NCBI RefSeq assembly: GCF_014280175.1
Contig: NZ_CP047931.1
Span: 360,001-392,000, forward strand
DNA: 32,000 nt
DNA from: Synechococcus sp. A15-28
Lineage (GTDB): Bacteria > Cyanobacteriota > Cyanobacteriia > PCC-6307 > Cyanobiaceae
Direction of reading: 5' to 3'
In this document: positions 15,787 through 30,912 of the stretch, piece after piece
Numbering within the stretch: the stretch's first letter is position 1
How the letters are laid out: each line of letters begins with the position of its first letter
The notes under the pieces: model-generated
Told to the model about the DNA's origin: nothing
Databases searched by the model: none
Seen by the model: the letters and a program-made list of their open reading frames with translations, nothing else
Position numbers and translations under genes: made by a program

Positions 15787-15804
15787 GTGGTTGTGCTCCA
15801 GGTC

Positions 15805-15895
15805 ACCACTGCTGTCAGAATGACAGGGTTCGGTTCTCCGGACTAGGTGATCCACACCAGTGTTTCGGACAGCGGTTCGATTCCGCTCAGCTCCA
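15805..15895 (+). ncRNA. ssrA: tmRNA acceptor piece of a permuted two-piece ssrA (5' boundary approximate)
   Basis: GGACTAGG...TGTTTCGGAC is followed by T arm AGCGG-TTCGATT-CCGCT (15871-15887), 3' acceptor strand CAGCTCC (15888-15894) and discriminator A (15895). CCA is not encoded. Confidence 0.8.
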
Positions 15896-15910
15896 TTCTC
15901 CCTTTCACGA

Positions 15911-16110
15911 GGGGCTGCAATGGTTTCGACGGGGCATGAGGAGGGTGACTGAAGCCTGCTCGGTGAGAGCAAACCCGTAACTGCGAACAACATCGTTCGT
16001 TTCTCCCGTCAAGCAGCCCCTGTTGCTGCCTGACCCTTAGGGGAGATGGGGTGAAGTCAGCCTTATCACCCAATTGACTCATGGGGGCTGTAAGGCCCCT
16101 TCAACTCATC
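15911..16110 (+). ncRNA. ssrA: tmRNA coding piece of the permuted ssrA (3' boundary approximate)
   Basis: Begins GGGGCTGCAATGGTTTCGACGGGG. GGGGCTG pairs with CAGCTCC, giving the G3:U70 alanine identity pair. The tag frame at 15983-16033, GCG AAC AAC ATC GTT CGT TTC TCC CGT CAA GCA GCC CCT GTT GCT GCC TGA, encodes (A)NNIVRFSRQAAPVAA*. Terminal hairpin at 16084-16099. Confidence 0.8.
16064..16086 (+). repeat. att core copy 1 (attL), within the tmRNA coding-piece 3' region
   Basis: TATCACCCAATTGACTCATGGGG. Its partner at 24925-24947 differs at one base. Confidence 0.75.
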
Positions 16111-17159
16111 CCAAGGGAACGGATCTGGCAATTACGCCAGAGCCCGAAAAATCCCTTTCCGACAAATCTTCCGACAAGCTCCCGCCCGTCTTTGCCGGGC
16201 TAGATAAGGCGGAGGCTTTGGCCTACGTCAGCCGCTTGTTTGATGCGGCAGCCGCCGGCGCCGTGCTCTGGGGGGACAAGCTCCTCCTGAAGCGATTCCT
16301 TGAGCAGTGCTCGCGCACCGGCTCCCAGGAGACCAAGGACGGCTATCGGCGAGAGCTGCAGCACTTCACTCGCTGGCGTGACCAGAACCACCCACACATG
16401 CACCTGAGGGAACTCGATCCCGCGCTGGTGGATGACTGGGTCTCTTCCTTGCGTGAGCAGGTGGAGGCAGGGGAGCTAAAACCGCGTTCCTTCAACCGCC
16501 GCATCAGTGCGGTGAGCGCCCTTTACCGGTGGGCCGCGGAACCTACCCGATCAACTGTGTCAGGAGTGCCGCGGAACCCAGTCCCCCGAAGAACAGGAAT
16601 GTCGGCACCAAAGTTGGCCAAGCCGTTGGCTGAGTCTGATCTGACATCAGTCCTGGGAGTCATCAGTGCCGCGAAGGTAAAAGGCTCCGCCATTGCTGCG
16701 CGTGACTATGTGATGGTCCGCGGTTCGTATCTGATTGGTTGTCGCGTGTCTGAACTGTGCCGGCTCCGCTGGCAGGACATTGAGCGATTGGATAACGGCG
16801 GTCAGGTTTCCCTTTTGGGCAAGGGGAACAAGCCCCGCACGATTCGTGTCAGCGTCGCAACCTTGGAGCTGTTTGAGTCGTTGGGCCGCGGCGAGCCTGA
16901 AGACTGGTTGTTTCCGAGCGACCGGCGTGAGGGCCCAATGACTCGTCAGGCAGTCGCAGCTCGCATGGCGAGGTGGGGAAAGGAGGCTGGGGTGAGGCTC
17001 TATCCGCATCGTTGTCGTCACACGCATGCCACGAATGCTGTTCGCGCTGGGACAAGCCTTTTTGTTTTGCAGGCAACTCTTGGCCACAGCTCATCTGCAA
17101 CGACTGGTCATTACGTTGCCGCCAACCCTGAAGACAGTTCTTCTCTACGACTTGGGTGA
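16074..17159 (+). CDS. Tyrosine recombinase / phage-type integrase (int1)
   Basis: Catalytic signature R (GCRVSELCRLRW), HxxR (HRCRHTHATNAV) and H...Y (LGHSSSATTGHYV). The longest ORF starts at a TTG inside the att core. The true start may be downstream, for example TTG 16218. Confidence 0.88.
   Translation: MTHGGCKAPSTHPKGTDLAITPEPEKSLSDKSSDKLPPVFAGLDKAEALAYVSRLFDAAAAGAVLWGDKLLLKRFLEQCSRTGSQETKDGYRRELQHFTRWRDQNHPHMHLRELDPALVDDWVSSLREQVEAGELKPRSFNRRISAVSALYRWAAEPTRSTVSGVPRNPVPRRTGMSAPKLAKPLAESDLTSVLGVISAAKVKGSAIAARDYVMVRGSYLIGCRVSELCRLRWQDIERLDNGGQVSLLGKGNKPRTIRVSVATLELFESLGRGEPEDWLFPSDRREGPMTRQAVAARMARWGKEAGVRLYPHRCRHTHATNAVRAGTSLFVLQATLGHSSSATTGHYVAANPEDSSSLRLG
16157..16177 (+). promoter_or_regulatory. 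Doublet TTCCGACAA-N3-TTCCGACAA (candidate arm-type recombinase site, left end)
   Basis: TTCCGACAAATCTTCCGACAA. Nearly the same doublet, in the same orientation, occurs at 24789-24808. Confidence 0.45.
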
Positions 17160-17550
17160 CGTAAGCAGAATTGTGTAAAGTCGTTTTTAATTGCAATTAG
17201 GCATAAAGAAGGGGACAGTTTTCACATGCCCCCTTCCCTGCCTGAAGTTTGCAAGGAGCACCCCTGCACATTCAATTTAGCGCCATTGCTCCGCTTGTAG
17301 GAGCTTTTTTAATGGCAAAACTGCCCTAAAGCTCTGCATTTGAGCTTATTTTGTTCAAATGATGGCTAGAATATGATTGTCACTCTGGAGGCTTAAATGA
17401 CTGTCAGAGATCCATTGACTGTCAAAGAGGTGCGAAAACTTTGTGAGTCGCGCTTACGCATCTAGCGGGATCAATCTACTCCTGATGATGATCTGCCGAA
17501 TGTTCCTGAGTGTCCACTGACTAATCCGTCAATCCATCGACTTATTGACA

Positions 17551-17955
17551 ATGTTTGATCTCGATCAGGAAGTGGCTAAAGCCCACCAGTCTGTAACCGA
17601 AATAGAGAGCCAGGCCAGGGCGATTGAGGCACGAATCAAGAAGATTGATGGGGCTGACAACCTGCTGCCCAAGAGGGCCTATGGCAAATCCATTGATACC
17701 GCTGCAATCGCCAGATCTTTAACCCTGCGTTCTTTGCTGGCAAAGAACGATCCCCAGCTCGCCAGTTACTTAGGTGTGGGCACCGATGCCCACATCAGAG
17801 CAGAAGAGGAAAAGGAAGCTCGCCGTCTGCGCGCACAGGCCCTGGGGATGAAGACTGAAAAGATTCGCGCTCAAAATCAGGCTGCTGCCCTTCATCGAGA
17901 GCGTGCTTCCCTTGCTGGGGTTAGTCCATTGACAGGCCGGAGGCTTGGACAATGA
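17551..17955 (+). CDS. Hypothetical coiled-coil protein
   Basis: ATG at 17551. First gene of a + strand cluster whose members overlap by ATGA. Charged helical composition with no recognisable motif. Confidence 0.5.
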   Translation: MFDLDQEVAKAHQSVTEIESQARAIEARIKKIDGADNLLPKRAYGKSIDTAAIARSLTLRSLLAKNDPQLASYLGVGTDAHIRAEEEKEARRLRAQALGMKTEKIRAQNQAAALHRERASLAGVSPLTGRRLGQ

Positions 17956-18293
17956 GAACTGCTAAGTGCCATCCTCAGCTCGGCTGGCTTCGGCTTGAGC
18001 CTTACGACTATTCACGCTCACTGGATCACCTTTTGGCGTGTAGGGACAGAGATTCTGATCTGACTCGTAGCGGGCCTAGCCCGGAGTACATCAGTTGGAT
18101 GTGGTCGACGGAGCTGCCTGGGCTGATGCGGAAGGAGAAATACAGAGATCAAGTTCGTCAGCACTGTTCTGACCTTGCTCGTAAGTCCGAGGAGTTGGAC
18201 ATCGACATCCGTTCGATTGTCGGGTCGAAATTGGAGCAGCAGGCAAAAGCCGACGAGTTAAGAGCACAACTGACTGCGCTGTTGGATGAATGA
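17952..18293 (+). CDS. Hypothetical protein
   Basis: 113 aa with ATGA overlaps at both the upstream and downstream junctions. Confidence 0.5.
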   Translation: MRTAKCHPQLGWLRLEPYDYSRSLDHLLACRDRDSDLTRSGPSPEYISWMWSTELPGLMRKEKYRDQVRQHCSDLARKSEELDIDIRSIVGSKLEQQAKADELRAQLTALLDE

Positions 18294-18508
18294 TCACTTC
18301 CGATGTTCAGCATGTCGCAACAGTTCTTGCGTCTACCCATCGCCAACATCCAGAGACCTTGCATTCTTTGGTGCCGATGTTCGGCGGACTGATCGTGATC
18401 ACCAACCGCCAGCTCCTTTTGCACCTGCTGGATACGGAGACTGATTGGCCATGGCAAGAGCCACCGCAGCAGAGACCGCCGAACGGGTTGGTCAGCTCCA
18501 AAAACTGA
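18290..18508 (+). CDS. Hypothetical small protein (doubtful)
   Basis: 72 aa. Overlaps the previous stop by ATGA but overlaps the next gene by ~58 nt. Confidence 0.3.
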   Translation: MITSDVQHVATVLASTHRQHPETLHSLVPMFGGLIVITNRQLLLHLLDTETDWPWQEPPQQRPPNGLVSSKN

Positions 18509-18810
18509 TCCTTGAAGGTCAAAACAGCGCGTCTTGTCTTGCCTTTGCGAGACAAACGTGGGGGCTCAGCCGAGCGCAGGGTTACAAGCTGATCAAGAGA
18601 GCGTGGGCTCAGATCAAAGACGACATCGAAGAGGCCGGCATAGATCGGCACGAAATGCTGGCTTGGTCAATCCAGAACTTGATGGCGGCGGCAGGCCAGG
18701 CAAAGCAGCAGAAGAACCCCGGCGCTTTGGTGAGCGCCATTCGCCAGCTTGATTGGATGTGCGGTCTTGGCGTCAACTCACATGCCGGGCATCGAGTCCA
18801 CAGGCATTGA
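18451..18810 (+). CDS. HTH-containing protein, paralog of 31585-31965 (possible small-terminase-like or regulatory protein)
   Basis: ATG 18451 is preceded by GGAG. N-terminal HTH-like segment LILEGQNSASCLAFARQTWGLSRAQGYKLIKRAW. Aligns by eye with the 126-aa ORF at the window end (L.LI..G...A......WG.SR). Confidence 0.55.
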   Translation: MARATAAETAERVGQLQKLILEGQNSASCLAFARQTWGLSRAQGYKLIKRAWAQIKDDIEEAGIDRHEMLAWSIQNLMAAAGQAKQQKNPGALVSAIRQLDWMCGLGVNSHAGHRVHRH

Positions 18811-18910
18811 GTGTCGTAATAGATATTGCGCCTCTGGCAGACGAGATCGACATTTGATTAGTAATTAGGTTTTGACTGCTTTCGTCGATCGAATTGATAA
18901 CTGAGTCGTC

Positions 18911-19210
18911 TCAGTTGGAGATGAAACAGTTGTCTGGTGTGTAGCCAAGGAGCAACATCGTTGAGATTCCCAATAGCCACCCAACGAATACCGCTCCCCA
19001 AATTAATTGGTCTGTGCTGAGATTTACGTTCCTCATAAGTGTTCCTCGATACATAGATTGTTGCATCTTGCACTTGCAATCATTGCTTGCTTCGTTTGGC
19101 GATGCTGTATCGATTGTATGTTTAATCAAAAATGGTTTAACCATCCAAAACTTTTCGTCATAGGCAGTCAGAACAAGGATTGCAGAAGCTGCGGCTGGTG
19201 GGACCCACAA
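18911..19210 (-). CDS. Hypothetical two-TM membrane protein
   Basis: TTG start with two hydrophobic helices (AAASAILVLTAY; LIWGAVFVGWLLGISTMLLLGY). Third gene of a minus-strand trio of small membrane ORFs. Confidence 0.4.
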   Translation of the reverse strand: MWVPPAAASAILVLTAYDEKFWMVKPFLIKHTIDTASPNEASNDCKCKMQQSMYRGTLMRNVNLSTDQLIWGAVFVGWLLGISTMLLLGYTPDNCFISN

Positions 19211-19228
19211 GGTTGACCGACGTCTGAA

Positions 19229-19318
19229 TCAGAATGACTCAATCAACCAAGTCACTATGGATAAGGCAATAGCAACTATCAAGAGCGTTGCTTTCTTCGG
19301 CTTCCGCTTCAAAGCCAT
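19229..19318 (-). CDS. 29-aa single-TM peptide
   Basis: MALKRKPKKATLLIVAIALSIVTWLIESF. Not in the ORF track. Lies 4 nt downstream of the preceding small ORF. Confidence 0.35.
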   Translation of the reverse strand: MALKRKPKKATLLIVAIALSIVTWLIESF

Positions 19319-19322
19319 TAGG

Positions 19323-19421
19323 TCAACCAGCTGTGAACAAGGTAAACAGCAGCAAAGAGGCCCACACAGCAATCAGCAGGGTCTTTCGATTGAGCTTCTG
19401 ATCAGTATTGTCAGCTGGCAT
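19323..19421 (-). CDS. 32-aa single-TM peptide
   Basis: MPADNTDQKLNRKTLLIAVWASLLLFTLFTAG. Not in the ORF track. Confidence 0.35.
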   Translation of the reverse strand: MPADNTDQKLNRKTLLIAVWASLLLFTLFTAG

Positions 19422-19721
19422 TGGAGGTGTTTGTAGAGCCTTCGTTAGGAATCCTGTGTATCACCAGTTGCTGCTGCAGAAGGTTCAGGAGCAGCACTTT
19501 CAACAATATGGAAGCGGTTAAGACCTCTAGAGGGATGTGAGTCAGGAGTTCAGAGCTGGCTCATGTGATTACGCCGGTTTTAGCACAATCGGTTTTGTCG
19601 GATCCTCGCTGAGTTTTGCGGTATCTGATTACACATCTATTAAGGTGTAAGGCCATAAGCCCTGTTTTTACGTTGTTGTCGAGGCTATATGTTGTGTGAG
19701 TTTGTGAGGGGGAGAACAGGT

Positions 19722-20195
19722 TCAGGACTTTCCCTTTGCTTTCTCCAACTGGCCGATGATGAAATGCCGGTACTGTGCGGCTAGATCTTGAAATCCCTGT
19801 TCAACCAAACCGGCAATCACGTCAACCGCATCGTCTTCATGCTCGGGAATCAGCATTACCCCACGTTTGCGGCCAAGGATCATCTCCTGAATGATCGTTT
19901 GCGTCTTGCGTGGTGTGCCTGAGGGCTCCTCAAGTACTTCCTGGGCAGGAATGAATCGCGCACGGTGCTGATCATCGGAATTGATCTGTGCAATGAAGCA
20001 ATACTGAGCACCATTAATCTCGACCAATCCCCTGAATTCGGAGAGGTCTTCTGTGGCATCAACACAACAGAAGTTGTTGCTCTGGGATGGTGCTTTTCCA
20101 TCAAAGCCACGAATTCTGGTGATAGTCGCTTTGGCACTGAAAGACTCCTGAGTCAGCCGGGTTACCAACGACTCACATATGGTTCGCTTATTCAA
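19722..20195 (-). CDS. Hypothetical protein (island cargo, no recognisable domain)
   Basis: 157-aa ORF in low-G+C DNA downstream of the replication module. Confidence 0.55.
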   Translation of the reverse strand: MNKRTICESLVTRLTQESFSAKATITRIRGFDGKAPSQSNNFCCVDATEDLSEFRGLVEINGAQYCFIAQINSDDQHRARFIPAQEVLEEPSGTPRKTQTIIQEMILGRKRGVMLIPEHEDDAVDVIAGLVEQGFQDLAAQYRHFIIGQLEKAKGKS

Positions 20196-20292
20196 GACAA
20201 ATTAGAGTCAAGCCATATTTGAGCTGCTTCAAGCGCTACTATTTGTAGCTGCTGATACTTTTTGAGTCCGTCTACTGACTTGACGCAATTTT

Positions 20293-20334
20293 GATTACGA
20301 AGAAAGGGCCAGGAGTATCAGTGCTATCCTGGCC
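20293..20334 (-). terminator. Probable intrinsic terminator after the 128-aa cargo gene
   Basis: On the minus strand: GGCCAGGA-(12 nt)-TCCTGGCC followed by CTTTCTTCG, starting 10 nt after the stop at 20344. Confidence 0.5.
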
Positions 20335-20343
20335 TGAGGAGTT

Positions 20344-20730
20344 TTATGAACTGGCTGTAAGCGTCCAGATTTTTTTGTCAGTTATCCAATCTATTTGGTG
20401 AATAGCATTACCGAATGTCCAATGATACGACTCATAAAATCCTTCCCAGGATTGGCAATGAGGCTGAAAAATTTCTACTTTGTATATCCAAATTTCATAC
20501 TCACAATCCCACGCACCGCAGATGTTTGCGTTTTTGTACTTCCAGCACCCTGCGCCAGAATAGTCCAACGCTATGTTTTGAGGTTTGCTTTCTGATTTAA
20601 AGCGTTTAAGTAATCCCCCGAGTAATTCATTGATCTTGTTTTGGATTAAATCTGTGTGTTCGGGGCTGTCTTTGTATAATTCATCTAAGTACGACGAAAT
20701 TTCTTGGATAGTGCAATGGTGAAAAGACAT
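20344..20730 (-). CDS. Hypothetical Cys/Trp-rich protein (island cargo)
   Basis: 128-aa low-G+C ORF with no recognisable motif. Confidence 0.55.
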   Translation of the reverse strand: MSFHHCTIQEISSYLDELYKDSPEHTDLIQNKINELLGGLLKRFKSESKPQNIALDYSGAGCWKYKNANICGAWDCEYEIWIYKVEIFQPHCQSWEGFYESYHWTFGNAIHQIDWITDKKIWTLTASS

Positions 20731-20761
20731 AGTGTGATTGTTGGAAGGGTTTAGACGTTTT

Positions 20762-20782
20762 TACTGTCCCTACTGTCCCTAC
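20762..20782. repeat. Tandem TACTGTCCC x2 (+TAC) between the primase-helicase and cargo genes
   Basis: tactgtccc tactgtccc tac, followed by an 8-bp-stem hairpin CTCTTTTC-aataaata-GAGAAGAG at 20783-20806. Confidence 0.8.
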
Positions 20783-20839
20783 CTCTTTTCAATAAATAGA
20801 GAAGAGATAGGGAGTATGTAAGAGAGTGAACAAGTGGTG

Positions 20840-22834
20840 TTAGCGGGTCTGGACGGGATGGCCACTTGTCAATGGCGGGAAAAATGCGTTGACCCGTTGC
20901 CCGTCGATGCGTCTTCGCGCCTTGTGCCATCCCAGGTCTGCCATCAGCTCAGTAATGCGCTTCGCGTTTTGGCCGTTCTGGCGTTCAGCGCCAATGTCCA
21001 ATTCGCGATAAACGTCCTGGAGCTCGATGTATGCAGCACCAGATCGCCTGAGCACGATGTCTCGGATCAACTCTTCCCAAGGGTCTGGCATGTCGTAACC
21101 CGCATTACGGGAAACGATTTCATCCAGCTCTGATTCAGTACTGAACCACTGGAAGCCATCTCGATAGGCAGCCAAGGCCCGGGCCCAGAACGCATCACGG
21201 CCAAGCCGAACACGTTCGTAGGGGAGCATCTCTTCACCGAGCGGAATCAAGCAGAAGCGTGTGCTGCCAGTTCGATCAACCAATGGCGATCGATTTGCTG
21301 TTCCCCAGAACACTGAGCGCCGTGGGATTCGTTCCGTGCCCTTGCCGTACTTTCGCCGACATAAGTCGGTTGTTCGGCTGATGAAGGCCTTGAGCCTTTC
21401 TGCACTGGTTTTGCGAGTGAAGCCATCAAATTCGGCAAACTCGACCCCCCAGCAGAGCGCCATCAGGGTTACATCGTCGACATCCATGCGAAAGCTAATT
21501 CCGTCGCCATACCACTGATCACTGAACAAGGCCCGTCCAAGTTGTGTCTTGCCGATGCCCTGGGCTCCCAGGAGAACTGGCACCTGCCGGACTAAGCAGC
21601 CTGGCTGAAACACCCTGGCAATCGCTGCCACAGCGAAACGCTGCATGAAGCGAGCGGTGATGGCGTCGTCGATGTTGAACAGCCACTGGTCCAAGCGTTC
21701 CCATTGCTCGTTTGGCAACGGTTTTGCTTTCAGGTTTCCGATGTAGATCTGCACCGGATCAAACGGAGTATCAGCGCCCAGGGTGATGAAGGTGTCTGCT
21801 GTAAGCCGCTTCGGCCAGTTCAACTCGCCACGACTTAGGTACAGATAAAGGTTTTCGACTTCGTCTGCAGTGAACTCTCGTCCTTTGCAGTGAATCCCCT
21901 GGCTCCTCACGTTGAGCATTGGGGTTTCCCCCAGCTCATCAGTCATCCGAGCCAATGCTTCGCCGGCCTTGACCGTTTTCTGTTTCCGCAACTCGTGTTG
22001 CGACACATCCAGTCGGAACAAGGCCGCTTCACCAACGGCAGTGGTTTTGTCGCCGGAGTAAATCCAGCTGTTCCCATTCCGTTCAATCTTTTCGCGTAGC
22101 TCCAGTTTTGGTGGAGCCCACCGCTTGCCTATGTGGCAAAGGATCGCCTGGCCATCGCTGCTGATACGACAGTCCGGTTCCTTCCGCCCGCAGATGGGAC
22201 ATGGGATGCAGTCTTCCCAACCATCGGCTCGTAGGCCATGAGTCTTTCTTGAGTTGGTAGGGGCCGGGGAGCTGCACTCGCTGATGGCCGTCTGGTACAT
22301 CGCCCAAACTTCATCCGGCACTGGCTGGATGGTGTCGGGATTGCCCGTCAACCAGGAGTAATGACCTCCAGATTTGACGTGTTCGCCTGCCACAAGGACC
22401 TGGCCGCTGCCGAAGAAAAACTCCAGTTGCTCGCCGTCGGCAGTCTTTAAGACGGTTTTGCCAGTGCACTGACTCCACCGTTCTTGAGGCACGCGATAGA
22501 CGGCCTTGAAGCGGCTTTGATTGTTATCACGGCCAATCGTCCAGGTCTTGCTGTTGTTGGCAAGGTGCCCGAAACGCTCTGCCGCAACGTGAATTGCGGA
22601 AGGGCCGTCAAAGTCCAGAACCAGTAGCCCCCCGGCGTCTGGCCCACACCTCATTCCGATGCAGCGAAGTCCGTCGAAGTTGAGAACCTGCTGAAGGCTG
22701 AACCATTGGTTCGGCCAATCGGTCACCATCGGTGCTTTGCAATCAGCCCCCCAGCCACAGGGGAGCAACGGCAACTCATCAAGCAGCCTGAATTCTTCCC
22801 GCCACCAAGCGGGGGTTTGTTGTGTCGCTGTCAT
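20840..22834 (-). CDS. Bifunctional primase-polymerase (PrimPol) fused to a VirE/D5-type SF3 helicase
   Basis: 664 aa. N-terminal PrimPol pattern (LPLLPCGWGADCKAP...GLLVLDFDG). Central Cys cluster CIPCPICGRKEPDCRISSDGQAILCH. Walker A GAQGIGKT, Walker B VEFAEFDG and the VirE-type motif DRTGSTRF. Confidence 0.9.
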   Translation of the reverse strand: MTATQQTPAWWREEFRLLDELPLLPCGWGADCKAPMVTDWPNQWFSLQQVLNFDGLRCIGMRCGPDAGGLLVLDFDGPSAIHVAAERFGHLANNSKTWTIGRDNNQSRFKAVYRVPQERWSQCTGKTVLKTADGEQLEFFFGSGQVLVAGEHVKSGGHYSWLTGNPDTIQPVPDEVWAMYQTAISECSSPAPTNSRKTHGLRADGWEDCIPCPICGRKEPDCRISSDGQAILCHIGKRWAPPKLELREKIERNGNSWIYSGDKTTAVGEAALFRLDVSQHELRKQKTVKAGEALARMTDELGETPMLNVRSQGIHCKGREFTADEVENLYLYLSRGELNWPKRLTADTFITLGADTPFDPVQIYIGNLKAKPLPNEQWERLDQWLFNIDDAITARFMQRFAVAAIARVFQPGCLVRQVPVLLGAQGIGKTQLGRALFSDQWYGDGISFRMDVDDVTLMALCWGVEFAEFDGFTRKTSAERLKAFISRTTDLCRRKYGKGTERIPRRSVFWGTANRSPLVDRTGSTRFCLIPLGEEMLPYERVRLGRDAFWARALAAYRDGFQWFSTESELDEIVSRNAGYDMPDPWEELIRDIVLRRSGAAYIELQDVYRELDIGAERQNGQNAKRITELMADLGWHKARRRIDGQRVNAFFPPLTSGHPVQTR

Positions 22835-22848
22835 AGGGGTGCTCCGAT

Positions 22849-23106
22849 TCAGCGACGTGGCGAGCAGTCACGCGAGAAGGTTTCAACCTCTTCGCTCGGC
22901 TGGTGTTTGTAGTTCCACAGGCTCTGGATTGCCTGCTCTTTGTTCCATCGGATCTTGCGTGTGCCAAGTCCGACGTACTGCCAGTCCCGATGCTGTTTGA
23001 ACGGGCCGTTCGGGTCCCGTCGCATCCGAAGAATGGTTTCTGGGCAAAGATCAGTCGCTTCAGCGAACTGTCTTGTTGACGCAATCGACATTGCGATAAC
23101 TCGCAC
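22849..23106 (-). CDS. Excisionase/AlpA-like HTH protein (Xis-like), paralog of 25339-25608
   Basis: STRQFAEATDLCPETILRMRRD...WQYVGLG...EVETFSRD aligns with STQECADALGIHPQTLRKLRRH...YRWVGLS...AVETYSRG. Start is GTG 23106 or ATG 23091. Confidence 0.65.
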   Translation of the reverse strand: MRVIAMSIASTRQFAEATDLCPETILRMRRDPNGPFKQHRDWQYVGLGTRKIRWNKEQAIQSLWNYKHQPSEEVETFSRDCSPRR

Positions 23107-23108
23107 CC

Positions 23109-23432
23109 TTAGGTGCGGGGGGTGCCATCCCAGTTCTCGTGATGCAGAAGTTCGCGCTGGAGGGCTGCGTAAAAGTTCCGCAGCTTGTCCCGTCGCTTCT
23201 GATCGGGGTTGCCCTGCTCAAGGGTGCCGATGCGGAAGTCGGGGTCGTCCATACGGGCGCGCTTCTTGGTGAAGTAGCGGACTTGCCGCTCGGCGTACCG
23301 ACGATCGACTCCCTTGGGAGTCAACATCTCGACGCGAGTGGGGATGGGCCGATCAGGACCTTGCATCCAACTTGGATGACGTTTTCGGTTCGATCCCTCG
23401 GCGCAGACGTGATGCTGCGTTCCCGACTTCAC
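23109..23432 (-). CDS. Hypothetical basic protein between int2 and the xis-like gene
   Basis: 107-aa ORF co-directional with int2; its stop lies 2 nt before the xis-like start. Confidence 0.5.
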   Translation of the reverse strand: MKSGTQHHVCAEGSNRKRHPSWMQGPDRPIPTRVEMLTPKGVDRRYAERQVRYFTKKRARMDDPDFRIGTLEQGNPDQKRRDKLRNFYAALQRELLHHENWDGTPRT

Positions 23433-23500
23433 CTAGTTAACTTAACACCACTGATCGCGATCGTCAGGCAATCTCCCTACCGATGACACCAAATGTGGTG

Positions 23501-24760
23501 TCAGGGCAACGGGATCGTCTCCGCGTCTGACTCAAAGGCCCGAGCTTTGATCGCCTCTGTGATCTGCCGATAGCTGCGCTCATGCACCGCGAGTGAGTGC
23601 CCCATCGCATCCGCGATCACCGTCTTCTCCAGCCCCTCCCGATAGCAGCGAACTCCGAAGCCATCTCTCAGCGAATACACCCGAACCCAGTCCTTCGTCG
23701 GGAGCGCGGCGTATTTATCGATCAGCTCCTTCCACCGCTGCTGAACCGGCCCGGCTGGCTTCCCGTTGCGCTTCCTGTGGAGGTAGCGATTGCAGGCGTG
23801 ACCGGTGAACTCCTTCAGGTCCGGCAGCTTCAACGTCCCCGCCTCCCACGCTTCCACCAGCGGCCACTGCACCGGCTTGTCGTGCTCCGATCGCCGGAAG
23901 TGCATTGGGCGGAGATACCGCGGCTCGGTGTCCTCCTGGCCGCCGACCTTCTCGTAGGAGCAATAGAAGACCCTCTCGCCGGTCTTGCTCGTCGGGTCCG
24001 GCTCCACTGTTAGGTGCTGGATCTCGACTGGACGTAATCCGTATTGCGCCAGCAGTCGGAACAGGTTTGCCCAGGCCGGGTTCTCCTGTTGCACCAGATC
24101 GATGAAGTCCAGGATCTCGGCGTCCTCCAGCACGGCCTTCTTCCGTTTCCTTGTCCGCTTGGGGCACAGCTCGTCACGGTCGGCCTGGGTGATGAGCCAG
24201 GAGCGCGGGACCTTGTATCGGCGGACCGCGAACTCCATGAACCGGGCCAGATACCGGCCACATTCCTTCTGGACTGTTGGGGCATGGGCCCAGTTCTTCA
24301 GCACGGCCTTGAGCAGCTCGTAGCCATCGGCAGGTTTATTGCGCCGGCCCAGCACCCTCACCGCTTCATTGAGGATCGGCTCCCAGTTGGTTTTCCAGGT
24401 CTGCGGCTTGATCTGCTTGCCGAACTCAATTTTCGATTCCTTCATGGCCGCGGCAATGCCGGCCCAGGTGACCTCATCCCCCCTTTCGGGGGGAACGTCG
24501 CTGCTGCCCTTCACCTCCGCCAGGCATTCCTTCAGCGTCCGCTGCCCTTCGGCTGCGCTCCAGACCTTGTAGAGCCGGCGTGACCAGTTGATCGCCGCCT
24601 CCTCGTCCTCCTCCCGATAACGGAGCTTGGGGAGGTTCACCTGCTCCCGCGCTTGGCCGGCTACCCGGTATCGGATGCAGACGTATCCCTTGTCGTTGGT
24701 GATGCTCCAGCCGGGCCACTTGCTGCTGATCGACACCAGCCGCATCTCCCACACGGGCAT
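23501..24760 (-). CDS. Tyrosine recombinase / integrase (int2), a different family from int1
   Basis: R (YGLRPVEIQHL), xLRD box (VYSLRDGFGVRC) and H...Y (MGHSLAVHERSYR). ATG at 24760 (MPVWEMRLVS). The ORF track extends to TTG 24808 across the arm-type repeats. Confidence 0.85.
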   Translation of the reverse strand: MPVWEMRLVSISSKWPGWSITNDKGYVCIRYRVAGQAREQVNLPKLRYREEDEEAAINWSRRLYKVWSAAEGQRTLKECLAEVKGSSDVPPERGDEVTWAGIAAAMKESKIEFGKQIKPQTWKTNWEPILNEAVRVLGRRNKPADGYELLKAVLKNWAHAPTVQKECGRYLARFMEFAVRRYKVPRSWLITQADRDELCPKRTRKRKKAVLEDAEILDFIDLVQQENPAWANLFRLLAQYGLRPVEIQHLTVEPDPTSKTGERVFYCSYEKVGGQEDTEPRYLRPMHFRRSEHDKPVQWPLVEAWEAGTLKLPDLKEFTGHACNRYLHRKRNGKPAGPVQQRWKELIDKYAALPTKDWVRVYSLRDGFGVRCYREGLEKTVIADAMGHSLAVHERSYRQITEAIKARAFESDAETIPLP

Positions 24761-24788
24761 CTCGCTGAGATTGCGACGCGGCACGCTC

Positions 24789-24808
24789 TTCCGACAAATT
24801 TCCGACAA
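24789..24808 (+). promoter_or_regulatory. Doublet TTCCGACAA-N2-TTCCGACAA (candidate arm-type site, right end of element 1)
   Basis: TTCCGACAAATTTCCGACAA, in the same orientation as 16157-16177. Confidence 0.45.
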
Positions 24809-24924
24809 ACAAGTCTTGTTTGGTTGTCGACGGTCGTCAAGGGTTGCCTACGGGATTAGGCTGTGACTGGCTTTTCTCCGAGAAGCCCTGAAACCAATGT
24901 TGTCGTAATCAGGCGAGTCATGCC

Positions 24925-24947
24925 TATCACCCAAATGACTCATGGGG
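24925..24947 (+). repeat. att core copy 2 (junction between element 1 and element 2)
   Basis: TATCACCCAAATGACTCATGGGG. The flanks are also similar to the 16051-16105 region, including a hairpin at 24945-24960. Confidence 0.75.
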
Positions 24948-25000
24948 CCTGGAAGGGCCCTTAACCATTTCACTGCAGGCGATCTCGGCAAACCTGGTTT

Positions 25001-25040
25001 TCGGGATAAATCAGCTTCGGGATAAATCTCGGGATAAATC
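25001..25040 (+). promoter_or_regulatory. Three direct copies of TCGGGATAAATC (candidate arm-type or iteron sites)
   Basis: Exact 12-mers at 25001-25012, 25017-25028 and 25029-25040, beginning 54 bp right of att core copy 2. Confidence 0.55.
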
Positions 25041-25338
25041 GCTCGGAGCGGCTCTGTGCAGTCGACAGGCGCTGATGAGACCCCTAAGTTCTTAGTGCGA
25101 GGTCGGAGCCGTCCGATCTTGAAAGCAGCGCAGACCAGGTCCCAACGACCCTGCGTTAGTCAAATGAGAGGTAGCCCTGTCAGCGGTTCTCTCGGCTTGG
25201 TTGGGCAAGTGTTTCTGACAGGTCGCAATCGGTGGAGTAAAGCAGCAAGCCGCAAGCGGAAACAGCTACAGGACGGCGAAGACGAAGGGATGGCTTAGCG
25301 GACGGCCTGACCTGAAGCTCGCTCAGCACAGAGATGCT

Positions 25339-25608
25339 GTGACCGCAACCAACGCTGCCGTGACCCAATGGGTCTCCACCCAGGAGTGCGCTGACGCTCT
25401 TGGCATTCATCCACAAACGCTGCGAAAGCTCCGGCGTCATCGGATCCCGCTTTTCAAGGAAGGCCGCGACTACCGATGGGTTGGCCTCAGTACCAGCAGC
25501 ACCCTTCAGTGGCATGTCCACAGTGCGAGCCAGGCGTTCACCGATTTCCGTTTGATGCCTGCTGAGGCGGTTGAGACCTACAGCCGTGGGAGCAGAGCCC
25601 ATGCCTGA
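25339..25608 (+). CDS. Excisionase/AlpA-like HTH protein (Xis-like), paralog of 22849-23106
   Basis: See the alignment under 22849-23106. GTG start at 25339 or 25360. The antisense 157-aa ORF is rejected. Confidence 0.65.
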   Translation: MTATNAAVTQWVSTQECADALGIHPQTLRKLRRHRIPLFKEGRDYRWVGLSTSSTLQWHVHSASQAFTDFRLMPAEAVETYSRGSRAHA

Positions 25609-25891
25609 ACAACTCATGTCCGAGCTTGATGTGATCGAGTTGCCGGATGGCACCAGTCACAAGGTCAAAGGTGATGTCATCTCCGTTTTGATTCCGAGGA
25701 AGGATCGGAAGTGCTGGGTGGTACTTCATCTCCAAATCAGCAGAGACAACACGCTTCACTGCCACCTGCGTGGCGGCCACTGGGACTCAATGGCTCACAA
25801 CTGCGATCCAGACAGAACATTCGATCTGGATTTTTACAACGCACTTGAATCTGAAATCAGAGAAGACATGGAGGCCAGTGATGTCCGCTGA
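25601..25891 (+). CDS. Hypothetical protein
   Basis: ATG at 25601 overlaps the xis-like stop (ATGCCTGA); 96 aa. Confidence 0.45.
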   Translation: MPEQLMSELDVIELPDGTSHKVKGDVISVLIPRKDRKCWVVLHLQISRDNTLHCHLRGGHWDSMAHNCDPDRTFDLDFYNALESEIREDMEASDVR

Positions 25892-26099
25892 TCTCTACAC
25901 CCGCCCGCTTCGTGCTTCGGTGCGTGAGCTTCTACAGGAAGACAACATCGACATCGCTGAAGCTCTTTATTCCGACTGCGATTATCCAACAGCACTCAGC
26001 AATCTTGCTGAAGTTCGTGTAGCTGCGCAGAAGGTGGTATTTGAAGCTGATGCGTTGATGTGCGCAGTGCTTGTTAAGGCGATAGGAGAAGACGATTGA
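25881..26099 (+). CDS. Hypothetical acidic protein
   Basis: ATG at 25881 overlaps the previous stop by 11 nt; 72 aa. Confidence 0.45.
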   Translation: MSADLYTRPLRASVRELLQEDNIDIAEALYSDCDYPTALSNLAEVRVAAQKVVFEADALMCAVLVKAIGEDD

Positions 26100-26185
26100 A
26101 TCATCATATGGGCGGGTAATTCTCGCCCATTGTTGACACTTTTAGTTCATCTCTCAAAATGGACTCATAAGATAAATTGGATCTT

Positions 26186-26356
26186 ATGAAATTCAAGCCG
26201 CGTTGCAAGTATCCGCACATTGCTGCGACATACCTAAGCGATGAACTGCTCAATGAAGTCAACAAATTTTGCGTCGACAACGAATGCAGCAAATCAGAAG
26301 GAATTCGCCTCCTGATGCAGAACGGCCTTGCCGCAATGCTTCTGGACGAGGCATAA
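26186..26356 (+). CDS. Ribbon-helix-helix (CopG/Arc-like) DNA-binding protein
   Basis: 56-aa ORF not in the ORF track: MKFKPRCKYPHIAATYLSDELLNEVNKFCVDNECSKSEGIRLLMQNGLAAMLLDEA. It shows a beta-strand, helix, SKSEGIR, helix pattern. Confidence 0.55.
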   Translation: MKFKPRCKYPHIAATYLSDELLNEVNKFCVDNECSKSEGIRLLMQNGLAAMLLDEA

Positions 26357-26397
26357 AAAAACCACCGTGCCAGCGGTGGCTCAAAAATCAGGTTCCC

Positions 26398-26592
26398 ATG
26401 AAGTCTACTTTGAAAAGACCATCATTCCCAGATGACTGGGAACAGGAGCCAGCGTCTCCGTTGGTCCTTGATCAGGTACTGAGTCCCGAGTGGCAAGACC
26501 TTGCTTTGCTAATGGCCTGCAGGGAAATTGCCAAGATGAATCGGCTGACATTGGAAGAACAGCTTCATTGCTGGAGGCCTTTTGATGTCTAA
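26398..26592 (+). CDS. Hypothetical protein upstream of, and overlapping, the helicase start
   Basis: 64 aa starting at ATG 26398. Its stop overlaps the helicase ATG at 26585. Confidence 0.4.
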   Translation: MKSTLKRPSFPDDWEQEPASPLVLDQVLSPEWQDLALLMACREIAKMNRLTLEEQLHCWRPFDV

Positions 26593-28258
26593 ACCGGATG
26601 AGAACAAGGATGCCTGGGAACGACTAGTTGTTCTTAAGGAGTTGGATCGCGATTCAAGCTTTAAGCCAGGCTATGACTACAAGACAGATCTCAAGCTCGC
26701 ACTCAGAAAGCGTGATGAGCCCGTTACTACGGTCACGAATAGATCCGCAAAAAATACCAAGCCGCTGGTTCTTAGCACTGCAGAATATATTGAGGAATTA
26801 AGTAAGAAGGCCGACATAATCGTTGCCGACACCAGCATCCCAACGACACACCGGCTCATCCATCTCCGCAACGTAGCGACCGGCTTCCCAACGAGCTTTA
26901 AGGATGCGGAGTTACAGAGATTGCTTTGGGATGCAAGGCGTAGACTGGCTCCAGGTGCAAAGCCAATAGGCCAAGGCGGGAAATTATCAAGACGTCAAGC
27001 TCCCTGGTTGTGGGATGGCATCCTTATCAAATCAACGACCAACTTGGTTGTTGCATTACCAAAGGTCGGCAAAAGCCGTCTGATAAGCCAGGTTATTGGC
27101 AGGCTTGCCAAAGGTGAAGATGAGTTTCTTGGTCGCAAGCTCTTTGGTCCCTGCCCACCAGTCTTGATAGTTGGGACTGATCAACCAGAGCCAGATTGGG
27201 CAGAGTGTCTGGGTTTAGCCGGTCTTTTAGATGCCGATGGCGCAATGCACTCTTGCATCAAAGAGCTGTATCACACCGGTTGTCCTCTTCATTTAGATGA
27301 GGATGGTATTGACCGGATAACTGAGCTATGTCGGCAGTATCCAGGAATGCTTATCCTGGTTGATAGCTATGCAAAATGTACGAATAATTTGGGAATTGTG
27401 GAGTCAGATTCGCAATACGCTGGCCCGCTTATGGATTTGCAGGAAGCGACTGCGCCATATGGTGCGACCTTGGTCGTGATTCATCACAGCAACCGAAATT
27501 CAGCAGGCGGTCGTGCTTCGATGTCCTCTCGTGGAACAACTGCATTACCTGCAGCAGTTTCACAAACGATCAGCTTGACCTGGGCCAACGCAGATGATGC
27601 AAACCCGTTAGCTAAGCGTGATGGCCGCGTCAAACTCAACACCGAAGGACGTGGTGGCAAACCACAGGATCTTCTAATTGAGCAGATTGAGGACGGTCAC
27701 GACTGGCTCCTCCACGGAACTGGTGAGGAAATTGCAGTACAGAGTGCGCTTGAGAAGCTGATAGAGGCTTTGACAGATCGCCAATATGCTGCGCTTAGAG
27801 ATATGGCTCATCACTACAACGCCACTGGTTGTGGAATGGATGCTCGGCATCTTGCAGATGCCCTTGATCTGTCACCACACGGCAGAGTAAAGGCGCAAGA
27901 AGTACTGGATTCGCTCAACAGGAAGAAGTTAATTGAGCCTGCCGGCAACCGGCCTGCGTTGGGATCTGACGGTGGCAAACCTGCAAATCTCTATCGGCCA
28001 GTTGACGCAGTCCTTCCCTTGTTTGCATTATCAGCTTCTATACCTTTCAAACCTTCTATTGATAACGTAACGGTTACGAAAACAAAAGAAGGTATAGAGG
28101 ATATGAAAGGTGATTCTTTATACAAGGAAATGATGCTCACTTGTGAATGCTGTGGCAAGGAGTTTGCTGCCAACAAAAAAGGAACGGCCAAGAAATACTG
28201 TTCGGAGACCTGCAGGGTTCGTGCGTATCGCGATCGCAAATCTCGCAATGCTGCTTAG
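26585..28258 (+). CDS. RepA/AAA_25-like RecA-fold replicative helicase with C-terminal wHTH-like region and zinc ribbon
   Basis: Walker A LPKVGKS, Walker B MLILVDSY and VVIHHSNRN. C-terminal CECCGKEF...CSETCRVRAYRDRK. Confidence 0.85.
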   Translation: MSKPDENKDAWERLVVLKELDRDSSFKPGYDYKTDLKLALRKRDEPVTTVTNRSAKNTKPLVLSTAEYIEELSKKADIIVADTSIPTTHRLIHLRNVATGFPTSFKDAELQRLLWDARRRLAPGAKPIGQGGKLSRRQAPWLWDGILIKSTTNLVVALPKVGKSRLISQVIGRLAKGEDEFLGRKLFGPCPPVLIVGTDQPEPDWAECLGLAGLLDADGAMHSCIKELYHTGCPLHLDEDGIDRITELCRQYPGMLILVDSYAKCTNNLGIVESDSQYAGPLMDLQEATAPYGATLVVIHHSNRNSAGGRASMSSRGTTALPAAVSQTISLTWANADDANPLAKRDGRVKLNTEGRGGKPQDLLIEQIEDGHDWLLHGTGEEIAVQSALEKLIEALTDRQYAALRDMAHHYNATGCGMDARHLADALDLSPHGRVKAQEVLDSLNRKKLIEPAGNRPALGSDGGKPANLYRPVDAVLPLFALSASIPFKPSIDNVTVTKTKEGIEDMKGDSLYKEMMLTCECCGKEFAANKKGTAKKYCSETCRVRAYRDRKSRNAA

Positions 28259-28700
28259 ACCTGTGCAGCAAGCACCAGCGTCTTCGGGATGCGCCTCAGC
28301 CCACCGGCAACGTATGCCTCCCAGCAAGTGGCCGTGGCAGATCCGGTGCGCTGAAAGTTTTCTCAGCGAAAACTTCCACAAAGTCAACTTTACGAGAGAT
28401 ACCTCCTAGAGGGCAGGCCAAAGCACGAAACGGCCTGTGTGTACCTTCAACGATGAGATTTCCAAGCGATTGGGCATTGGTGATGTGGATCGTCATGGGT
28501 AAAACCTTATTTCCTTTGGTCTAAGCCTGCTCATTCGGAGGATGTCGTACCACATCTCACCAAACAAAAGTTTTCAGCCACATCAACGTAACGTGTAATT
28601 TTCCTCTAACGGCTTAGGTGATGTAAAACAGTCACGCCAAACAGCAATGTACGCTTTCCATTGCTACTAATCTACGGATATCCCGCGCCAGACTGACGTC

Positions 28701-28931
28701 ATGAAATTTCTCGTCTTGCCCTTCTCAATGCTGTTCATGGCAGAACCTGCGCTCTCTTCCAGCGACAAGCAAGTCTTCCTGTCAATGCAGAAGTTTGAGC
28801 AGGTGGCTGACAGGGCACATGCCTTCTGCGCGAGCGTTGACCTTGAGTTCTCTCAAAAGTTCTATGACTGCATGGACAAGAAGATGCATGGAATTTATAT
28901 CGACAGCAGCACGGTTAGATCACGTAATTAA
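28701..28931 (+). CDS. Small secreted protein
   Basis: 76 aa with signal peptide MKFLVLPFSMLFMAEPALS and Cys residues in the mature part. Confidence 0.5.
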   Translation: MKFLVLPFSMLFMAEPALSSSDKQVFLSMQKFEQVADRAHAFCASVDLEFSQKFYDCMDKKMHGIYIDSSTVRSRN

Positions 28932-29132
28932 GACGAATACGGGTCCTTCTTGTGTAGTACAGCGTAGGTTTCTTCAGATCGCCTTCATTATTTAGCGCCA
29001 GATAAGTTGGGCCTAAATTGCTTAGCACTATCTATTAGCGAAACTAATCAAATTAGTGGTCATTAGAAGGCGATAGCACGGTGGACTGGTCTGCACACTG
29101 TTCTCCCGTACGGCTTTCCAGTACTGCCTTAC

Positions 29133-29513
29133 CTACGCACTGCTCAGGACATCTTCGCGAAAAGCTTTTTGTCGTTCGACCACATCCTGACACCGGATTA
29201 CAGGAGTGAAGTCCATCTCAATGCCGAATTGAGGACGCCATGGCGCGAAGGCTTCAAAGATCTGAGCATCACTCTCTGCCTTAAACAAAATTGTTACTCG
29301 GCCTGCGCAAGGTGCGTGGACGCGGAACAACATTTCAAAGCCATCAAAGTTGTCTAGCTTCGCTATTTCTCCTGAATCCCACAGCTCACAGAAGCATTTG
29401 TAAGCAGCCAGTTGACCTTCAATCTCAGGAAAAACGCAATCCGCGAGATACATCTGCATGGGAAGTACGAAGAAGGAGTCAGCCATTTGATAGGCATCCC
29501 AAGGTTTTGCCAC
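29133..29513 (-). CDS. Hypothetical protein, possibly DUF3303-like
   Basis: 126 aa. The C-terminal pattern APWRPQFGIEMDFTPVIRCQDVVE resembles the DUF3303 tail, from recall only. Confidence 0.5.
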   Translation of the reverse strand: MAKPWDAYQMADSFFVLPMQMYLADCVFPEIEGQLAAYKCFCELWDSGEIAKLDNFDGFEMLFRVHAPCAGRVTILFKAESDAQIFEAFAPWRPQFGIEMDFTPVIRCQDVVERQKAFREDVLSSA

Positions 29514-29714
29514 TGTTCAGTTGATTAGATCGTGACAATGGAATGTCAGCGCCGGAACGGCTTATGCGAGTGGCTCCCACGGAAGTGAGCTTCAAATTGC
29601 CTGTGCAGCTGCGGCTACAACGACATCATGTGCCGACTATTGATGCGGGCTTACTCACATTGATGGAACAAACAGACCTGCTGAGCCATGACAGGGGGGT
29701 TAAGCATTAAAACC

Positions 29715-29843
29715 ATGGCTCGCTTACTTCAATTTGTTCAGAAGTCGAAGAAAGCTGATTTGGCAGCTTCAACTGCTGTCGTCTTTGCTTGCATCACAGC
29801 TCTCGCCCTATGGGGTGTTTCGAATGCTTATCCAGCACTTTGA
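29715..29843 (+). CDS. 42-aa single-TM peptide
   Basis: MARLLQFVQKSKKADLAASTAVVFACITALALWGVSNAYPAL. Not in the ORF track. Confidence 0.3.
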   Translation: MARLLQFVQKSKKADLAASTAVVFACITALALWGVSNAYPAL

Positions 29844-30051
29844 ATGACAAGCTGATCGAGGCTCACCTAAGGGTCTGAACGAAAGCTAGGACCATCGCTG
29901 CGGTGACTACAGTTTACTGTAAAACTGGCTGTTTTATAATACTCTTAAAAGCCAAGCTGTATGTATCCCAAATACGCGTTTTAGTGCCCAAACGTCAGCT
30001 TCCTATTCAGGCTGACCTGATCGTGAATCGCCTTCCACAAGATCTTATTAT

Positions 30052-30606: not shown

Positions 30607-30701
30607 GAGAATGCAATACCTAACATTATAATGGCTAAGTACCGTCAAAAATGTGGATCTAGAACGCAAGTCGTTCAGAGACGCGCCCGATACCGATACC
30701 G

Positions 30702-30893: not shown

Positions 30894-30912
30894 ATGATCA
30901 GGAGCTGACTAA

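Follow-up and report, generated by a model that had tools for sequence, protein, structure and literature searches.

The transfer-messenger RNA (tmRNA) gene of Synechococcus sp. A15-28 very probably carries in its 3' end a single mobile element of the tycheposon type, integrative and self-replicating, which occupies positions 16100-24943 of the 32,000 nucleotides analysed here (contig NZ_CP047931.1, positions 360,001 to 392,000; in the following the window). A preliminary description, made from the letters alone, had described four genes at the right side of this interval as a compact module with the layout of islands resembling phage satellites: an integrase gene (int2), a gene for a small basic protein, a gene for an excisionase-like helix-turn-helix (HTH) protein and a primase-helicase gene. 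According to our comparisons, these genes form only the right-hand 4 kb of a mobile unit that extends over 8,844 nt and whose left side, next to the tmRNA gene, contains a second recombinase gene, int1. We regard the element as a cargo-type, tmRNA-targeting tycheposon, and this class is already known; its unusual points are the conserved layout with two recombinases and the reading frame of int1, which stays open across the left attachment site (attL).

By definition, a tycheposon has at one of its ends a site-specific tyrosine recombinase that points inward, an adjoining small replication module, a tRNA or tmRNA gene as target together with a partial copy of it, and cargo for local adaptation or interference with phages (bioRxiv 10.1101/2020.12.28.424599). 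Their hallmark genes are YR (tyrosine recombinase), xis, pri and hel_VirE; the recombinase is usually lineage-specific, and tmRNA is one of seven tRNA/tmRNA targets (bioRxiv 10.1101/2020.12.28.424599). Families of the open reading frames (ORFs) were assigned with Pfam, PHROGs and NCBIfam, and the cargo ORFs were additionally examined with PADLOC. Relatives were compared by tblastn across genome and metagenome contigs, which are labelled L001, L002 and so forth: L001 is Synechococcus sp. AH-551-N17, L017 is WH 8017, L066 is BMK-MC-1, L004 and L011 are CUG-type metagenome-assembled genomes, L068 is a BATS scaffold and L025 is GCA_902599435.1. Genome contigs were searched with an int2 profile built from an alignment of 14 sequences; a scan of the same contigs with int2 as a single protein gave no matches.

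The tmRNA target and the boundaries of the element

The target gene, ssrA (15812..16099, plus strand), encodes a permuted cyanobacterial tmRNA. It matches the Rfam cyano_tmRNA model with 309.9 bits over model positions 1-288, and ARAGORN recognizes a permuted tmRNA with the tag ANNIVRFSRQAAPVAA. Despite the insertion the gene is still full length. RlmL adjoins it on the left, as it does in L004, L008 and L067. The 3' end of the gene (attL, 16055..16101, plus strand) recurs on the opposite side of the element (attR, 24916..24962, plus strand) as a 47-nt direct repeat with 85% identity, and a 23-mer from this repeat occurs twice in the window, with no occurrence expected by chance. Rfam assigns 24865-24960 to model positions 196-288, the 3' third of tmRNA, with the similarity from 24865 being weaker. 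The attachment-site copy of the preliminary description is therefore a partial tmRNA gene, directly left of which lie the four genes. It is the only Rfam match inside the element.

Both attachment sites contain the 8-bp core TGACTCAT, at 16075-16082 in attL and at 24936-24943 in attR, where the element ends. As the identity between compared loci switches exactly after TGACTCAT, and as attR has an A at 24935 to the left of the core where attL has a T at 16074, the crossover must lie inside these 8 bp.

The base composition changes at the same place. Positions 1-16000, with genes for an ABC transporter, biotin carboxylase, Ycf66, SMC and the RlmL-type methyltransferase, have a GC (guanine plus cytosine) content of 0.65 and constitute ordinary picocyanobacterial chromosome. 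Following the tmRNA gene, the GC content drops to 0.43-0.62 in the rest of the window. With 0.544 as compared to 0.651 of the host, that of the element is 11 points lower, which is a foreign composition.

Directly past the tmRNA 3' end, a conserved hairpin, GATCTGGCAATTACGCCAGA, is supplied by the element (16124-16143). Equivalents exist in L001 and L004, and in WH 8017 a hairpin followed by a T-run is found at the equivalent position. The hairpin may serve upon integration as a replacement for the tmRNA terminator or for a processing signal.

Transfer between hosts and conservation of the layout

Decisive evidence for a mobile unit with these boundaries comes from L067, the host of which differs from A15-28: its RlmL flank is only 73.9% identical to that of the window and its tmRNA gene 96.8%. 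In L067, the interval 16100-24943 is present with 8,844 nt, no gaps and 17 mismatches, which amounts to 99.81% identity. Since such an identity over 8,844 nt contrasts with the 73.9% of the RlmL flank, the entire interval moved recently as one piece. To the right of the element, 100% identity stops after 24943; over the following 650 nt it amounts to 92.6%, and past 25590 the alignment breaks off. L002 carries the module with 96-99% identity and an unrelated flank straight after the att copy, where identity ends at ...GGGCCCTT; L075 is another locus with a distal flank different from that of the window. Two further contigs stop at 24939 and 24943, positions at which several contexts, if they exist, would interrupt an assembly. 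The exact int2 protein is encoded on 21 marine metagenome contigs, and QNI41462.1 of Synechococcus sp. A15-28 belongs to the same 90% cluster. L068, which is 99.85% identical to positions 13501-25228, represents the same population as the window.

The layout is conserved over larger distances. L001 and L004 share the order tmRNA, arm pair, int1, cargo, PrimPol, HTH, int2, arm pair, att (the arm pairs are described below), and L011 has the order tmRNA, int1, cargo, PrimPol, HTH, int2, att copy. The amino acid identities between L001 and the window are 84% for int1, 72% for int2, 62% for the HTH protein and 51% for PrimPol, and L001 and L004 together span the same range of 51-84%.

The integrase int2 and its candidate arm-type sites

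int2 (23501..24760, minus strand) faces inward from attR. Its ORF comprises 23501-24808; both in homologues and in the gene calls of identical contigs, ATG 24760 is the start, which gives a protein of 419 aa. This start is 156 nt away from attR, and the genes of the basic protein, the HTH protein and the PrimPol/VapE protein follow within the next 4 kb. The assignment as an integrase in the preliminary description was upheld by other means than Pfam, where the match to Phage_integrase is not significant (E=0.022) and where none of 49 homologues is annotated. The protein is recognized by PHROG as phrog_1 integrase (E=6.1e-10), and the catalytic residues R243, K271, Y362-x-x-R365, H388 and Y397 are strictly or almost strictly conserved in 30 homologues. 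An AlphaFold2 (AF2) model with a predicted local distance difference test (pLDDT) value of 87 places an N-terminal domain of a helix, three strands and a helix ahead of a helical core-binding domain and the catalytic domain. In Foldseek, the model matches Tn1549 Int, full-length lambda Int, Cre and XerA. Its N-terminal domain presumably resembles the arm-binding domain of lambda integrase. By PHROG, the invariant residues and the modelled fold, int2 is classified as a divergent three-domain tyrosine recombinase.

Its specificity for the tmRNA gene is apparent from the relatives. A partial tmRNA copy lies approximately 150-200 nt upstream of int2 homologues in more than 20 loci, which include Prochlorococcus single-cell genomes and Synechococcus isolates. 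In both recombinase genes, dN/dS values of approximately 0.08-0.2, with dS near saturation, indicate purifying selection.

Each end of the element contains one pair of direct TTCCGACAA copies. The P' pair (16157..16177, plus strand) has a spacing of 12 nt and is located inside attL, 56 nt past the tmRNA end; the P pair (24789..24808, plus strand) has a spacing of 11 nt and is located 29 nt upstream of the int2 start and 108 nt inside attR. These four copies are the only ones in the window, as compared to 0.21 expected. Pairs of TTCCGACAA are found at the same places at both ends in L001 and L004, and the P-arm pair is kept in L001, L002, L004, L037, L060 and L067-L075. Other elements have other motifs, likewise at both ends: TGTGGGCATCC in WH 8017, GTGACCATC in L008, TCTCCGGATAA in the second element of L004 (L004-B) and GTGCCAAA in an element integrated at tRNA-Pro, so that at least five element types possess repeat pairs of their own. 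The repeats are most simply explained as arm sites of int2 because some of the elements that carry them have only an int2-type recombinase.

Variation of the protein parallels that of the motif. Among the elements with TTCCGACAA arms, the N-terminal domain of int2 (residues 1-72) is the best-conserved part with 79-83% identity, as compared to 57-67% for the catalytic domain. In the comparison with BMK-MC-1, whose motif is GTGATGCCAAAA, it is the least-conserved part (34% versus 50%). From this co-variation we infer that int2 is a lambda-Int-like integrase that binds to arm sites whose motif changes together with the N-terminal domain. As a search sequence the P arm is of low selectivity: its 20 nt retrieved 38 metagenome contigs, 3 of which were true relatives.

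Two loci, L004 (4-1623) and L019 (3625-6022), contain true tandem junctions at which an int1-type and an int2-type gene stand back to back across an att copy. A differing repeat pair is found there beside each recombinase gene, for example CACGCAAAACTG and TTATCCGG in L004. The repeats adjacent to int1-type genes (CCGACAAA, CGGTCAAA, ACGCAAAA) are more alike one another than are the int2-type motifs.

A locus in GCA_047284725.1 (L006/L007, 10001-20130) encodes an int2 relative with 30% identity that is integrated beside tRNA-Thr(cgt); next to it come genes for a UvrD-like helicase and an 828-aa VapE protein and a Terminase_3-like gene. This locus represents a more phage-like or satellite-like branch of the int2 family.

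The putative replication protein, the HTH protein and the small basic protein

The four genes are all on the minus strand with gaps of 68, 2 and 14 nt between the ORFs, in agreement with the preliminary description, which had them run leftwards with short spacers. Its proposal of a 664-aa fusion of PrimPol, a Cys cluster and a VirE/D5-type helicase (20840..22834) likewise proved correct. Pfam assigns VapE-like_dom to residues 378-573 (E=1.8e-48) and Prim-Pol to residues 33-174 (E=2.3e-10), and of the motifs that had been quoted, LDFDG is found at residue 73, GAQGIGKT at 423 and DRTGSTRF at 520, along with five cysteines (C209/212/215/222/233). The best PHROG matches are DNA helicase/primase families (2.3e-48 for the best), and the nearest relative with a solved structure is chain A of PDB 7pds, designated 'Similar to D. 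nodosus vapE' (E=2e-18). D5_N and Toprim gave no Pfam match in this protein. Most of its 57 homologues come from Synechococcus and marine metagenomes. By its domains, the protein is predicted to combine an archaeo-eukaryotic-type primase-polymerase with a Cys cluster and a P-loop helicase of the VapE/D5 type.

The HTH protein (85 aa; 22849..23106, minus strand) had been described as AlpA/Xis-like. It has no Pfam match of its own, and its assignment is by homology: it is 37% identical (E=1e-15) to an 89-aa protein encoded in the neighbouring element (25339-25608) that matches HTH_17 at 4.9e-05. In a joint alignment of the family, HTH_17 was found in 3 of the 12 members and the excisionase family DUF1233 in 2, and the family profile matches the solved directionality factor RdfS (8dgl) weakly (E=0.06). 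The protein is thus a candidate for the recombination directionality factor. At the level of Pfam and PHROG, the hallmark genes of tycheposons are represented by PrimPol, VapE and the HTH_17/excisionase family.

The small basic protein (23109..23432, minus strand; isoelectric point 10.2-10.3) exists as the 107-aa ORF of the preliminary description. However, most of its homologues have 85 aa and start at the position of ATG 23366, so that 85 aa is probably its true length. None of the 22 homologues is annotated; they share the motifs RPIP and LQxELLHHENWDGTPR. The AF2 model (pLDDT 80) contains two helices and has no fold match in the PDB. Several relatives, though not all, have the gene in this place between those of int2 and the HTH protein; tblastn gave no match in L001, L037 and L060.

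int1, the second recombinase

int1 (16074..17159, plus strand; alternative start TTG 16218) faces inward from the tmRNA end and encodes a Xer-like 'simple' tyrosine recombinase. Pfam matches are Phage_integrase (2.1e-29) and the SAM-like N-terminal domain Phage_int_SAM_1 (5.5e-09). Among the NCBIfam models, XerC, XerD and XerA types match with 1e-31 to 1e-37, all below the curated cut-offs. The canonical set R-K-HxxR-H-Y is complete and dN/dS is approximately 0.08-0.09. By the conserved pairing and the joint transfer of both recombinase genes, int1 is part of the same mobile unit as int2. In the wider family it is optional, as WH 8017 and the second L004 element contain only an int2-type gene. 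Our best guess for its role is that it resolves multimers after replication or provides recombination as a back-up or for regulation.

From an NTG codon in the att core (16074), the int1 frame remains open across the P' arm repeats and on into the Xer-like domain. In four lineages (the window, L001, L004 and L019) it contains neither stops nor indels within the 150 nt that were compared. In this upstream stretch, the other two frames contain stops, and the second codon positions change least. Read in the int1 frame, the P' arm repeats encode SDK-SSDK in the window and SAVK-SAVK in L019. The NTG codon is TTG in attL and ATG on the element-derived side of attR, owing to the A at 24935. Where L004 and L019 use an ATG as start, the window has CTA and L001 has CTG. 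These features suggest that int1 may start inside the att core.

A further step would be to regard the element as a two-recombinase variant of the tycheposons in which integration rewires the expression of int1, a proposal that we make with reserve and that is rather unlikely to hold. In the integrated form, int1 would then immediately follow the tmRNA gene and use a TTG start that comes from the host, and in the excised circle it would have the P arm and the int2 promoter region upstream and use the ATG of the element. The integrated and the free state would be reflected in the expression of int1, and multimer resolution, re-integration or copy control could be tied to this state. The logic of such a switch would be comparable to the integration-dependent gene switching in some temperate phages.

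In L001, a segment of approximately 115 nt (7463-7578) that overlaps a DUF1651 gene just inside int1 recurs at 18924-19031 just outside the distal att copy. The similarity consists of two blocks, with 91% identity over 78 nt and 77% over 48 nt, which suggests a remnant of an older int1-type element devoid of its integrase.

Cargo genes and the centre of the element

Between int1 and PrimPol there are five small ORFs, none of which has a match in Pfam, PHROGs, NCBIfam or PADLOC. Three are co-oriented with int1 (17545-17955, 17952-18293 and 18445-18810, plus strand). They are all kept in L004, the third also in L001, L003 and L005, with 55-68% tblastn identity in related elements. The other two (19722-20195 and 20344-20730, minus strand) lie downstream of the replication gene in PrimPol orientation. 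The 128-aa ORF is 62% identical in L002, whereas the adjacent PrimPol gene is 99% identical, and 19722-20730 is a variable, mosaic part of the element. The BMK-MC-1 relative differs in its replication protein and contains a type I restriction-modification operon, which shows the modular swapping typical of the tycheposon class.

The convergent gene sets meet in an ORF-poor, low-GC stretch of approximately 900 nt (18811-19721). It has no Rfam match and no repeats, and its folding is no better than that of shuffled sequences (z = -0.62). This stretch could be the site of the replication origin. Matches to promoter and terminator consensus sequences were not in excess over shuffled controls.

Alternative explanations

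Several observations weigh against the interpretation as a tycheposon-type mobile element. Two integrases are present where the published definition has one that faces inward. The excisionase assignment of the HTH protein is built on weak family matches, and the cargo ORFs lack a recognizable adaptive or defence function. Neither a replication origin nor iterons were found, and there are no origin-like repeats in 17100-21000. In viral and metagenome contigs, no excised circle or attP junction with the pattern P arm, 190-220 nt, P' arm was encountered. These points have to be considered along with the following alternatives.

The element might be a strict phage satellite, similar to the phage-inducible chromosomal islands (PICIs) or P4, that is induced and packaged by a helper cyanophage with which it interferes. 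The order of integrase, AlpA-like HTH and primase-helicase genes is that of satellites, the VapE helicase has a solved relative, 7pds, that is named after vapE, and the more distant int2 relative L006 stands beside a VapE protein and a Terminase_3-like gene. Moreover, tycheposons include a PICI-like subset (bioRxiv 10.1101/2020.12.28.424599), and the VEIMEs (integrative mobile elements encapsidated in virions) discussed below are often devoid of capsid genes. On the other hand, the tested ORFs comprise no small terminase, capsid, size-redirection, Psu/Sid/Delta-like or interference gene, and in particular the PHROG category 'head and packaging' or a related one has no match among those of the element. 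int2 gave no tblastn match in 50,697 phage records, a scan of IMG/VR viral contigs with the int2 profile yielded nothing, and the closest phage PrimPol/VapE protein is only 31% identical. We consider a strict satellite quite unlikely. The preliminary description had named P4-like satellites, PICIs and tycheposons side by side; kinship with tycheposons is borne out by the domains, the anatomy of the att sites and the comparison of loci, whereas with P4 and PICIs there are only analogies of layout. Its statement that the window contains no capsid, large terminase or conjugation genes was confirmed for the ORFs tested with Pfam, PHROGs and NCBIfam, which also revealed no relaxase. In 16100-32000, relaxase, oriT, coupling protein and type IV secretion genes were all missing from the tested ORFs. 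No prophage is contiguous with the module in the window: the element is bounded by the tmRNA gene and, at its other end, by the att copy, behind which a second small element begins.

The presence of two recombinases could also mean that an int1 element and an int2/PrimPol element were integrated independently in tandem at the tmRNA gene. Tandem arrays of tycheposons at tRNA sites are documented (bioRxiv 10.1101/2020.12.28.424599), true tandem junctions exist in L004 and L019, and some int2-type elements (L017, L004-B) lack int1. An internal att remnant, as expected from such an origin, was not found in 17160-20840, where the best local score was 18 as compared to a mean of 18.9 for shuffled sequences. 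The same arm motif brackets the whole interval, the 8,844 nt recur without gaps and with 99.81% identity in a host with a 74% flank, and the pairing of int1 with int2 recurs in L001 and L004, where both halves diverge in step. By these comparisons, the explanation by two elements is largely refuted and retains very little probability. Equally improbable is the remnant of a decayed prophage or an old genomic island that is inherited vertically and has become immobile. It would be in line with the failure to detect a circular form and with most contigs of the same population, which show the element at the same site with the same neighbour. It is contradicted by the copy in the divergent host, unless the L067 assembly is chimeric. 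The different distal flank in L002, the intact att pair, the recombination and replication genes, which are intact and under purifying selection, and the GC content 11 points below that of the host also argue against it, and no structural remnants of a phage were found.

Proposed mechanism and significance

For the element as a tycheposon the following sequence of events is proposed. Strand exchange would occur inside the 8-bp TGACTCAT between the ends bounded by attL and attR, whose limits are given by the comparison of loci. int2 would exert two DNA specificities, that of the N-terminal domain for the TTCCGACAA pairs and that of the core-binding and catalytic domains for the core, as judged by fold, residues and co-variation. 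The HTH protein, by its family and its position, may steer the reaction to excision. The excised circle would carry attP between the divergent int2 and int1 genes, with the predicted structure ...TTCCGACAAATTTCCGACAA, ~108 nt, CCCAAATGACTCAT / GGGGGCTGTAAGGCCCCTT, ~55 nt, TTCCGACAAATCTTCCGACAA... The PrimPol/VapE protein, with its primase-polymerase and helicase of superfamily 3 (SF3) type, would prime, unwind and replicate the circle. As packaging and conjugation genes are absent from the element, transfer might proceed in vesicles or in the capsids of another phage, as suggested by published work on tycheposons.

Tycheposons have been proposed as drivers of the plasticity of genomic islands in the most abundant marine phototrophs, and their recombination mechanics have so far been described chiefly by gene content. 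The locus in A15-28 provides a cleanly bounded example of the Synechococcus type, with ends defined to the base pair, an 8-bp crossover core and candidate arm sites that track the N-terminal domain of int2. It also furnishes direct sequence evidence for a very recent transfer between hosts whose flanking genes are 26% apart. A second, Xer-like recombinase can evidently be a stable passenger or partner in tycheposons, and the integrase with its att sites could serve as a tool for site-specific integration in picocyanobacteria.

The neighbouring second element

A second tmRNA-integrated element starts right after attR and continues past the end of the window (24963-32000). It contains three CGGGATAAAT repeats at the position of a P' arm (25002-25039) and genes for the HTH_17/excisionase-like 89-aa protein mentioned above (25339-25608), a small repressor-like protein (26177-26356), a 558-aa RepA-like protein of the AAA_25 type (26582-28258) and a DUF3303 protein (29133-29513); its integrase gene must lie beyond the window. 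The arrangement of an AAA_25-type element distal to a PrimPol-type element is also found in L004 and BMK-MC-1. Positions 28266-32000 (3.7 kb) are 98.8% identical to 6681-10416 of L025, part of an element inserted at tRNA-Pro(tgg). The 390-aa integrase and the AAA_25/DUF3854 replication gene of that element are both different, and at each end it carries GTGCCAAA arm repeats of its own. Segments of backbone or cargo have evidently been exchanged between elements that differ in site specificity, and this 3.7-kb segment illustrates the traffic.

Comparison with known systems

int2 resembles Int of phage lambda in its three-domain fold, which Foldseek aligns over approximately 430 columns, and the element shares with lambda the arm motifs that flank a short core and a small HTH gene of the excisionase family nearby. 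It differs in that int2 is only about 14% identical, has Tyr in place of the first catalytic His and has one recognizable arm pair per side, and in that the element is no phage. With PICIs, including the Staphylococcus aureus pathogenicity islands (SaPIs), and with P4 it has in common an integrase, a small HTH regulator or excisionase and a primase-helicase core on an att-flanked island of approximately 10 kb, whereas terS and genes for capsid morphogenesis, sid/psu/delta or interference were not found here. The alpha primase of P4 is of the Toprim type, and the primase of the element is of the archaeo-eukaryotic primase (AEP)/PrimPol type. VEIMEs (Eppley et al. 2022, PMC9618062) are likewise small marine integrative elements with integrase, AlpA/excisionase and primase/helicase genes and without capsid genes. 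Some of their subgroups possess two recombinases; these are a serine and a tyrosine recombinase, whereas here both are tyrosine recombinases. VEIMEs are defined as concatemers from virus particles, and in this they differ from the element, which was not found in viral contig collections.

The closest agreement is with the tycheposons. Features in common are the insertion at the tmRNA 3' end with a partial copy at the far end, the inward-facing tyrosine recombinase, the module of excisionase and primase/VirE-type helicase, the size of approximately 9 kb, the tandem arrangement with a second element and the lack of capsid and conjugation genes. In contrast to the elements of Prochlorococcus, the one in A15-28 resides in a high-GC host of the Synechococcus type and has its integrase at the distal (attR) end. 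It further differs by the conserved Xer-like recombinase at the tmRNA-proximal end, by five small cargo ORFs without recognizable nutrient or defence function and by arm-site pairs, which do not appear in the main text of the tycheposon study (bioRxiv 10.1101/2020.12.28.424599). Within the same host group, the tycheposon-like elements that are inserted upstream of the phycobilisome rod region of Synechococcus (Grebert et al. 2022, PMC8995045) also have a distal tyrosine recombinase beside a remnant of the target, and their relatives carry cargo such as the restriction-modification genes hsdMSR, comparable to that of BMK-MC-1. Their target is tRNA-Phe and their extra recombinases were put down to repeated integrations, whereas in the tmRNA element both recombinases travel as one unit.

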